DNA from: Escherichia phage EcF-vB
DNA: 64,000 nt
Sequence record: PV683228.1
Direction: 5' to 3' (one strand)
Shown here: positions 16,432 to 18,212 of the stretch, piece after piece
Layout of the letters: each line of letters opens with the position of its first letter
Numbering within the stretch: the first letter of the stretch is position 1
Made by a program: the position numbers and the translations under genes
Notes under the pieces: generated by a model
What the model saw: only the letters and a program-made list of their open reading frames with translations
What the model was told of the DNA's origin: nothing
The model's database searches: none

Positions 16432-18212
16432 TTAAAGCTGCTTGTCAATATTATTTCGAATATCACCAAGAGTTGTGTAACCGAACTGCTCAGAGTCACT
16501 AAAGACTAAACGTAAAGCACAAGCTGGGTGGTCAAGTACATCTGCAAAACTCTGGAATCCATAGCCATCTACAGCTTTCAGCTTATCACCATCCCACATA
16601 GGTGCTACACCACCAAAGGCAGATTTCTTAACACCACTATCTGTTTTAGGGTCTTTTGCAAGCATAATCTCTTTACCACCAATGCTTGCAAGAGTTGCTT
16701 TGACAGCAAATGCAAAGGTGTCACGAGTCATGTACTGGTAAGTATAAGAGCCTACACCAAACACTACGTTAGAGCTTGCAAAACCCATTTCATACAGGCG
16801 CTTCAGGATTTCGTTTGCACGTTCCAGCGTGATAGAGTCACCATAGATAAGGCCGATATGCTCATCAAGTACCTTAAACCCTTTAGAGTTAATAGTTCCT
16901 CCAAAGATGTTGTACAGTGTCTTAATAGCTCCATCAATTTCAGCTACAGGACGTGTTACAACGTTTGCAGAACCAACCATATAAGCATTTTTCAACATCA
17001 CTGTATCAGCAACTTCAAAGTCTTCTCTGTCAACAACCATTTCGTAGCCTTCTGACAGTAGCCATCCAGCAATACCATAGCTGATGTTTTCAAGCTTCAT
17101 GTTCAGAACAGCATTCAACATTGTGTCACTAGCTTCCAGCTTGCTTAGGTGCTCGTAATAAGCCTTCTTAGCACACTCTAAGTGGATTGCTTTATAACCT
17201 GTGACAATACGTACAGGGTCTCCAGAGTCAGGGCGAATTACCAGCTTACCATCCCGTTCCATAATTTCTTTACGTAGTGCTGGTAAGATTTCTGACACAG
17301 TTCTCCAGAAGTTATAAGTATCTGAAACAATACTTGCAATACCAGTTGGGTAAGTTTCTGTTAAGAAACGACGGAAGGTTTGTAACTCACCTTTAAAGCG
17401 TCTTTCCTCTTCAATCAATTCATTACCACCTTCCCAAGCAATGTTTGCACACATTACAGAGTGTTCAGTGGCTGGTACAGAACTACCAATATCAGAGATT
17501 GGGTAAGACTGTCCATAGATTCGTTTAGCCGTATACACAGCAGGGAAGCTATCAGTTCCTTTAAAGCTGGTTAAGTGACCTACAGCATTAAATGCGTCAT
17601 CAGTAAAGCCGGACATACCACGCATAGCAAAGTCATGGCACTGATAAGGTAAATGTAAGTCATTGTCGCAAGTAAGGTCAGCCCACTTCTTACAGATACG
17701 TTTGTAGTGCAATGCGATAGTTGCAATGGTGCAAGCCTTCCAAATCTCAGCAGAGAAAGCATCTTCCAGATAACCTGCTACCCAATGGAAACCTGAAACA
17801 GTGTTCTGGAAGACAATCATTGGAACACGCATAGGAACAACTGTACCTTCTTCTACAGCGTATACTTCAACTGGTAGATAGCCTAAATCGTGAAGTGCTT
17901 CCCAATGCTCTCGACCGATAGCATCTTTACCCAGAACACCATTCATGACTTCTAAGATTTCATCAACTGCTTCTTTTTATCACGTTCAAAGAAAGTGGCG
18001 TTCCAGTGGTCTATCAAGTAATCTTTAACAAAACGTTGAATACCAAAAGCCACTACACCGTCAATTGCTAAAGGGCTGTTAAACCATTTGTCGCTACGTG
18101 GTGTCAGGTTGAACATCAAGTAATCTGTTGCACTGGGGTATTGGTAAACATGGCCAGATTTGTAAGCGTCCGCGTTTAAACCTGCTGGCACTGCATAAAG
18201 TGATTTAGTCAT
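16432..18212 (-). CDS. nadV: nicotinamide phosphoribosyltransferase (NAMPT), split into two ORFs (17952..18212 and 16432..17946) by a -1 frame break
   Basis: N-terminal fragment LNADAYKSGHVYQYP and the main ORF each match my recollection of NAMPT; the -1 frame is open across the junction; one extra A in the A5 run (plus-strand T5 at 17974-17978) gives one continuous ORF. Confidence 0.7.

Follow-up and report, generated by a model that had tools for sequence, protein, structure and literature searches.

We find that the split NAMPT-family gene of Escherichia phage EcF-vB (complement strand, positions 16432..18212 of the window, by which we mean the whole 64,000-nucleotide stretch of record PV683228.1 that was analysed) is very probably whole in the phage itself, and that its frame break is best read as a one-base homopolymer undercall in an error-prone assembly, not as a property of the phage. 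The true gene would then be an intact 593-aa Namat (the NAMPT-family nicotinamide ADP-ribose transferase of NARP1) in which an A6 run was miscalled as A5, and Namat and the upstream Adps would together form the NARP1 operon, by which NAD+ would be rebuilt from ADP-ribose and nicotinamide against NAD+-depleting bacterial defences. The gene itself is already known, and its name is corrected here from NAMPT to Namat/NARP1; the main value of the finding is as a quality flag, in that roughly one in four A/T 6-mers of the assembly is shortened.

The gene is one base short relative to the 1782-nt CDS of its relatives, and it appears on the complement strand as two ORFs. The first (17952..18212, 86 aa, ending in a TAG stop) holds the N-terminal segment of Namat (NAMPT_N) and carries residues D15 and Y17; the second (16432..17946, 504 aa) holds the remainder of the protein, with the catalytic core and the NAPRTase domain, and starts with an ATG 5 nt past the TAG of the first. 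The frame of the second ORF is open backwards to a TAA that overlaps GAT-AAA at an A-run, and this run (T5 on the plus strand at 17974..17978, A5 on the coding strand, six in relatives) is the site of the -1 frame break. Adding one A to it gives ...FFERDKKEAVDEILEVMNGVLGKD... within a continuous protein of 593 aa. Against the Pfam model NAMPT_N (PF18127; cut-off 25), the 86-aa ORF reaches 26.8 bits and the repaired protein 23.9 bits; the latter also matches NAPRTase (PF04095) at 122 bits (cut-off 20.8, E 4e-35). The repaired protein aligns with solved NAMPT-family structures without a break through the junction, FFERDKKEAVDE of the window lying opposite FFKRPKQDVVNE; it matches the human, rat and mouse NAMPT structures with E of about 1e-40, and its residues 5-343 and 428-586 are collinear with the SpbetaL1 Namat structures 9W5W/9W5X (E 1e-128).

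Because relatives carry a single 1782-nt CDS at this place and the sole indel is one base in the run, the two ORFs are, on their sequences, the two halves of one NAMPT-family gene and no chance pattern. These results bear out what a first-pass annotation of the window had read from its letters: it had taken the 86-aa ORF for the NAMPT N-terminus (as the NAMPT_N score above its cut-off now indicates), had regarded the 504-aa ORF as continuing the same protein (the repaired gene corresponds to the single CDS of the relatives, with a one-base indel only), and had proposed that an inserted A restores a NAMPT-type alignment through the junction (as it does against solved structures that include human NAMPT). 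The spacing of a stop and 5 nt, the downstream frame open across the junction and the T5 at 17974-17978 were likewise as it had described them. Immediately past the namat stop, at 16396..16417 on the complement strand, lies a GC-rich hairpin followed by T5 (GGCTCC-TAC-GGGAGCC-TTTTT), the likely intrinsic terminator of the operon; in phage Barry a terminator is annotated at the equivalent position.

The identity of the gene follows from its Bas63 counterpart. Bas63 genes 79-80 are the NARP1 operon: gene 79 encodes Adps, a Prs-like enzyme that converts ADP-ribose to ADPR-PP by pyrophosphorylation, gene 80 encodes Namat, a NAMPT-like enzyme that forms NAD+ from ADPR-PP and nicotinamide, and the operon overcomes SIR2-HerA, Thoeris and similar NAD+-depleting defences (bioRxiv 10.1101/2024.02.11.579819). 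Adps function has been shown in Bas63 and SpbetaL1, and the preference of Namat for ADPR-PP over PRPP, with NAD+ as product, has been demonstrated with the SpbetaL1 enzyme and, in vivo, with Bas63; a Namat gene is the neighbour of 97% of Adps genes, and Bas63 without genes 79-80 remains viable, its impairment being confined to hosts that carry an NAD+-depleting defence (bioRxiv 10.1101/2024.02.11.579819). The window namat has the same position as Bas63 gene 80, directly downstream of Adps and with the same flanking genes, and the only respect in which the window departs from this arrangement is the one A missing from the A6 run, which splits the frame. Its upstream partner in NARP1, adps (18258..19139, complement strand), is intact; the product, a Prs-like ADP-ribose pyrophosphate synthetase, is identical to Bas63 gp79 at 280 of 293 residues (96%) and contains the Pfam domains Pribosyltran and Pribosyl_synth.

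The window gene is the Namat of NARP1 by orthology, its function being carried over from the experiments on the 99%-identical Bas63 orthologue. The name NAMPT given in the first-pass annotation holds at the level of the family (Pfam NAPRTase and NAMPT_N) and fails for a canonical NAMPT, the 99%-identical orthologue, Bas63 gene 80, being a Namat by experiment. Canonical NAMPT/NadV enzymes (human NAMPT and phage KVP40 NadV; the NARP2 pathway) share superfamily and fold with the window Namat, whereas the Bas63 orthologue prefers ADPR-PP over PRPP, makes NAD+ directly with no NMN, and has Adps as its partner where those enzymes have an NMN adenylyltransferase (bioRxiv 10.1101/2024.02.11.579819). 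For annotation, the gene pair at 16432-19139 corresponds to the known NARP1 operon (Adps plus Namat) and not to a canonical PRPP-synthetase/NAMPT salvage pair. SpbetaL1 Namat (about 490 aa) differs from the 593-aa Felixounavirus Namat in being without an insertion of ~85 residues (about 344-427); this insertion is conserved in Bas63.

By megablast, the window belongs to the genus Felixounavirus (FelixO1-like myoviruses of Escherichia and Salmonella), and the closest genomes (for example, Bas63/JohannRWettstein, finno and Barry) are about 94-95% identical to it over 25-kb stretches. The 1781-nt gene, used as a query, pairs with a 1782-nt stretch in 30 of 30 top-listed relatives, and in those relatives whose annotation was inspected this stretch is annotated as one CDS; in alignments with Barry, Andreotti, KhF3, Bas63 and finno the gene has just one indel, A6 against the A5 of the window. 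When a 120-nt probe centred on the A-run was compared with 160 phage records, the match was one base longer than the query in 58 of the best 60 of the 160, and A6 was present at every locus inspected among these 58. Exact-pattern scans found the A6 allele in 11 IMG/VR contigs and the A5 allele in no contig of IMG/VR, the GTDB genomes or the JGI metagenomes. The first-pass annotation had held that high-quality reads confirming T5, together with split ORFs conserved in related phages, would refute its reading; the relatives have A6 and one frame. The repaired Namat of the window is identical to Bas63 gp80 at 587 of 593 residues, with 0 gaps and the same length of 593 aa. At the nucleotide level the two genes differ by about 3%, with no further indel, yet only 6 of the 593 residues are changed, so that namat has been under purifying selection essentially to the present.

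Two of the 60 listed records, GE_vB_B3 (MG969406.1) and GE_vB_7A (MG969404.1), have A5 at the site. Both are marked UNVERIFIED in GenBank, are unannotated and come from a single submission, and the namat genes of the UNVERIFIED records MG969406.1, MG969404.1 and MG969414.1 (GE_vB_NS7) have several indels each, mostly at short homopolymers. Because of these several further indels inside the same gene, GE_vB_B3 and GE_vB_7A give no support to a real A5 allele, and the five A that the two records share suggest that the namat A6 run is a recurrent miscall site.

The break in namat is not the only one in the window. We aligned the whole window to Bas63, listed all indels, and then compared the same sites with a second relative, finno. 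Relative to Bas63, the window has ordinary indels in divergent or intergenic stretches and, in addition, a number of isolated sites at which a short homopolymer, its flanks perfectly conserved, is one base shorter; at nearly all of these isolated sites finno is the same as Bas63. A tblastn search with 92 Bas63 proteins found seven genes of the window, namat among them, split between two frames exactly at those sites. The frame is broken in 7 of the 82 Bas63-protein genes and also in nrdD, which stands outside the Bas63 tblastn protein list because it is intron-split in Bas63.

Among the genes affected, the DNA polymerase falls into two frames at 38395..38399 (A5 against A6 in Bas63; finno has a substitution here, yet it too is one base longer than the window), the exonuclease is split at 30697..30701 (T5 against T6 in relatives), and the DNA ligase is split at 41829..41830 (TT against TTT in relatives). 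The Bas63_0057 homologue, hyp57, is broken at two T5 runs (30088-30092 and 30298-30302; T6 in relatives), the Bas63_0010 homologue of the structural module, hyp10, is split at 62343..62347 (T5 against T6), and the i-spanin is split at 7960..7962 (C3 against C4). At 24239..24242 (T4 against T5 in relatives) NrdD stops after 8 codons, its residues 9-714 lying in another frame. Two intergenic runs are shortened from 6 to 5 (46496-46500 and 59426-59430). One further A/T run shortened by one base, at 20329-20332, is intergenic and, judged from Bas63 coordinates, apparently lies just upstream of a start codon; all three probably reflect the same artefact.

We evaluated this pattern against a control between two relatives and as a function of run length. 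With Bas63 proteins compared with the finno genome, 0 of 88 genes had a frame break. There are 21 isolated 1-nt indels between finno and Bas63, whose coordinates apparently place them in the tRNA and early intergenic regions; they break no gene. The gene-breaking deletions are therefore specific to the window, and we rejected the proposal that one-base homopolymer differences of this kind are normal Felixounavirus variation. Counted over A/T runs with identical 5-nt flanks, shortening in the window affects 0 of 289 4-mers, 1 of 102 5-mers and 6 of 26 6-mers (about 23%), and a steep increase with run length is the pattern expected of homopolymer-calling error. The errors are also biased towards deletion (among isolated 1-nt differences from Bas63, the window is shorter at 14 and longer at 3).

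Judged by what DNA polymerase, ligase and exonuclease do, a phage in which all three are frameshifted should be inviable, from which we infer that these lesions come from sequencing or assembly. Eight conserved genes, NrdD and the three just named among them, are broken alike at homopolymers when compared with two independent relatives, which strongly supports a one-base homopolymer deletion in the assembly, the first of three alternatives that the first-pass annotation had offered (the others being a real pseudogene and slippage). One consideration counts against the artefact reading: since Bas63 without genes 79-80 is viable, Namat is dispensable, and a lesion in it, unlike one in the polymerase, would be non-lethal if real.

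A real and very recent loss-of-function frameshift, in which the isolate carries A5 and has lost NARP1 (for example, by propagation on a laboratory host without NAD+-depleting defences), would fit the non-essential nature of NARP1 (deletion of 79-80 from Bas63 leaves plating normal where the host has no defence system), the natural tendency of A6 runs to be slippage hotspots, and the A5 that two other deposited records have at this position. Those two records are, however, UNVERIFIED and have several further indels in namat, and an error at the namat run is to be expected without any biology when the 6-mers are shortened at the rate given above, in the DNA polymerase and other needed genes as elsewhere. 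Between two good assemblies, moreover, no gene is frame-broken, and the window namat has no second lesion and encodes a protein 99% identical to a functional orthologue; we consider a pseudogene of this kind quite unlikely. Were the frameshift real, it would amount to the ordinary loss of a dispensable anti-defence gene. A broader form of the same idea takes A5 as real and the namat A6 tract as a recurrent slippage hotspot, at which Felixounavirus isolates lose NARP1, reversibly or not, on hosts without NAD+-depleting immunity. It would explain why three divergent deposited genomes share A5 at one position, and we give it very little probability.

The homopolymer undercall also has to be compared with explanations in which the sequence is correct as deposited and the enzyme is nevertheless made. 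Programmed recoding would produce full-length Namat by a -1 ribosomal frameshift on ..U AAA AAG.. or by transcriptional slippage on the A-run; a -1 shift within the overlap of roughly 30 nt would restore exactly the conserved protein, and the re-pairing of tRNA-Lys from AAG to AAA is slippage-prone in E. coli (as at the A AAA AAG site of dnaX). The window resembles a dnaX-type site in that its A-rich run ends in AAG and the protein continues in the -1 frame, but it differs from the full site (A AAA AAG plus stimulators) in having T at the first position, no downstream hairpin and no conservation. The 0 frame reads GAT AAA AAG, and the heptamer is thus T AAA AAG and not X XXY YYZ, a configuration that allows re-pairing of the A-site codon but not of the P-site codon. 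Over the 84 nt downstream the minimum free energy (MFE) is -14.9 kcal/mol, and shuffled sequences average -16.5 (z = +0.56), 140 of the 200 being at least as stable; a reading of the upstream sequence showed no stimulator of the Shine-Dalgarno type. Five A, in addition, fall short of the run lengths known to give efficient transcriptional slippage. The two-frame arrangement is not conserved, the relatives having A6 and a single frame, and the same explanation would be needed independently for seven other genes. We rejected programmed -1 frameshifting and transcriptional slippage, the third alternative of the first-pass annotation, on the incomplete heptamer, the lack of downstream structure and the in-frame relatives, and we regard recoding as extremely improbable.

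Alternatively, the 86-aa and 504-aa products might be made separately and joined non-covalently into an active Namat. The second ORF has its own ATG 5 nt past the stop of the first, and the N-terminal residues of Namat/NAMPT work across the dimer interface: in crystal structures of SpbetaL1 Namat (PDB 9W5W/9W5X), the nicotinamide/NAD+ pocket is lined by Asp13', Tyr15' and Arg40', which the partner protomer supplies from its N-terminal segment, and aromatic residues of the SCL loop and SCH helix form an adenine-binding selectivity clamp (PMC12774641). Because D15 and Y17 of the window, the aligned counterparts of the active-site Asp13' and Tyr15', sit in the 86-aa ORF, the 504-aa fragment is without these active-site residues and should be inactive if the split is real. 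The break also removes residues that are continuous in the solved structures, no relative has such an arrangement, and the window-wide error pattern already accounts for the break, the same type of lesion being present in seven other genes. A two-subunit enzyme was rejected on its lack of conservation and on those seven further lesions, and its probability is next to nil.

If, as is very probable, the namat break is a homopolymer undercall, the consequences extend beyond this gene. Any finding of a split gene, pseudogene or frameshift in the window (including DNA polymerase, ligase, exonuclease, NrdD, spanin, hyp57 and hyp10) should be treated as artefact until resequenced, and the intergenic shortenings at 46496-46500, 59426-59430 and 20329-20332 could distort analyses of promoter or ribosome binding site spacing.

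Several further features of the window were noted. A block of about 2 kb at 9865-11904 (complement strand), between rIIB and the next conserved gene, is absent from Bas63; one of its products, of 299 aa, resembles N6-adenine DNA methyltransferases (NPPF motif; Pfam N6_Mtase, 24 bits), and two further ORFs in the block (279 aa and 86 aa) have no Pfam match. The block looks like an accessory island, and some other relatives annotate a methyltransferase in the region. The window nrdD (complement strand) is uninterrupted at about 23067, where Bas63 has a homing endonuclease element of ~740 bp (47828-48568) and a two-piece join CDS; finno, like the window, is without this intervening element. At 40145-40420 the window has no counterpart of the putative homing endonuclease bas63_0046, which in Bas63 lies beside the DNA polymerase, and the stretch downstream (40420-42746) is more divergent, at 88% identity. 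Between the small early ORFs at about 230-5220 lie repeated intergenic elements of ~95 nt containing GAATCTCC(T)AGTTTAAGG (for example, 2332-2425, 3127-3219, 4378-4473 and 4720-4820); they cross-match many Bas63 intergenic sites and are probably repeated early promoter or terminator units.
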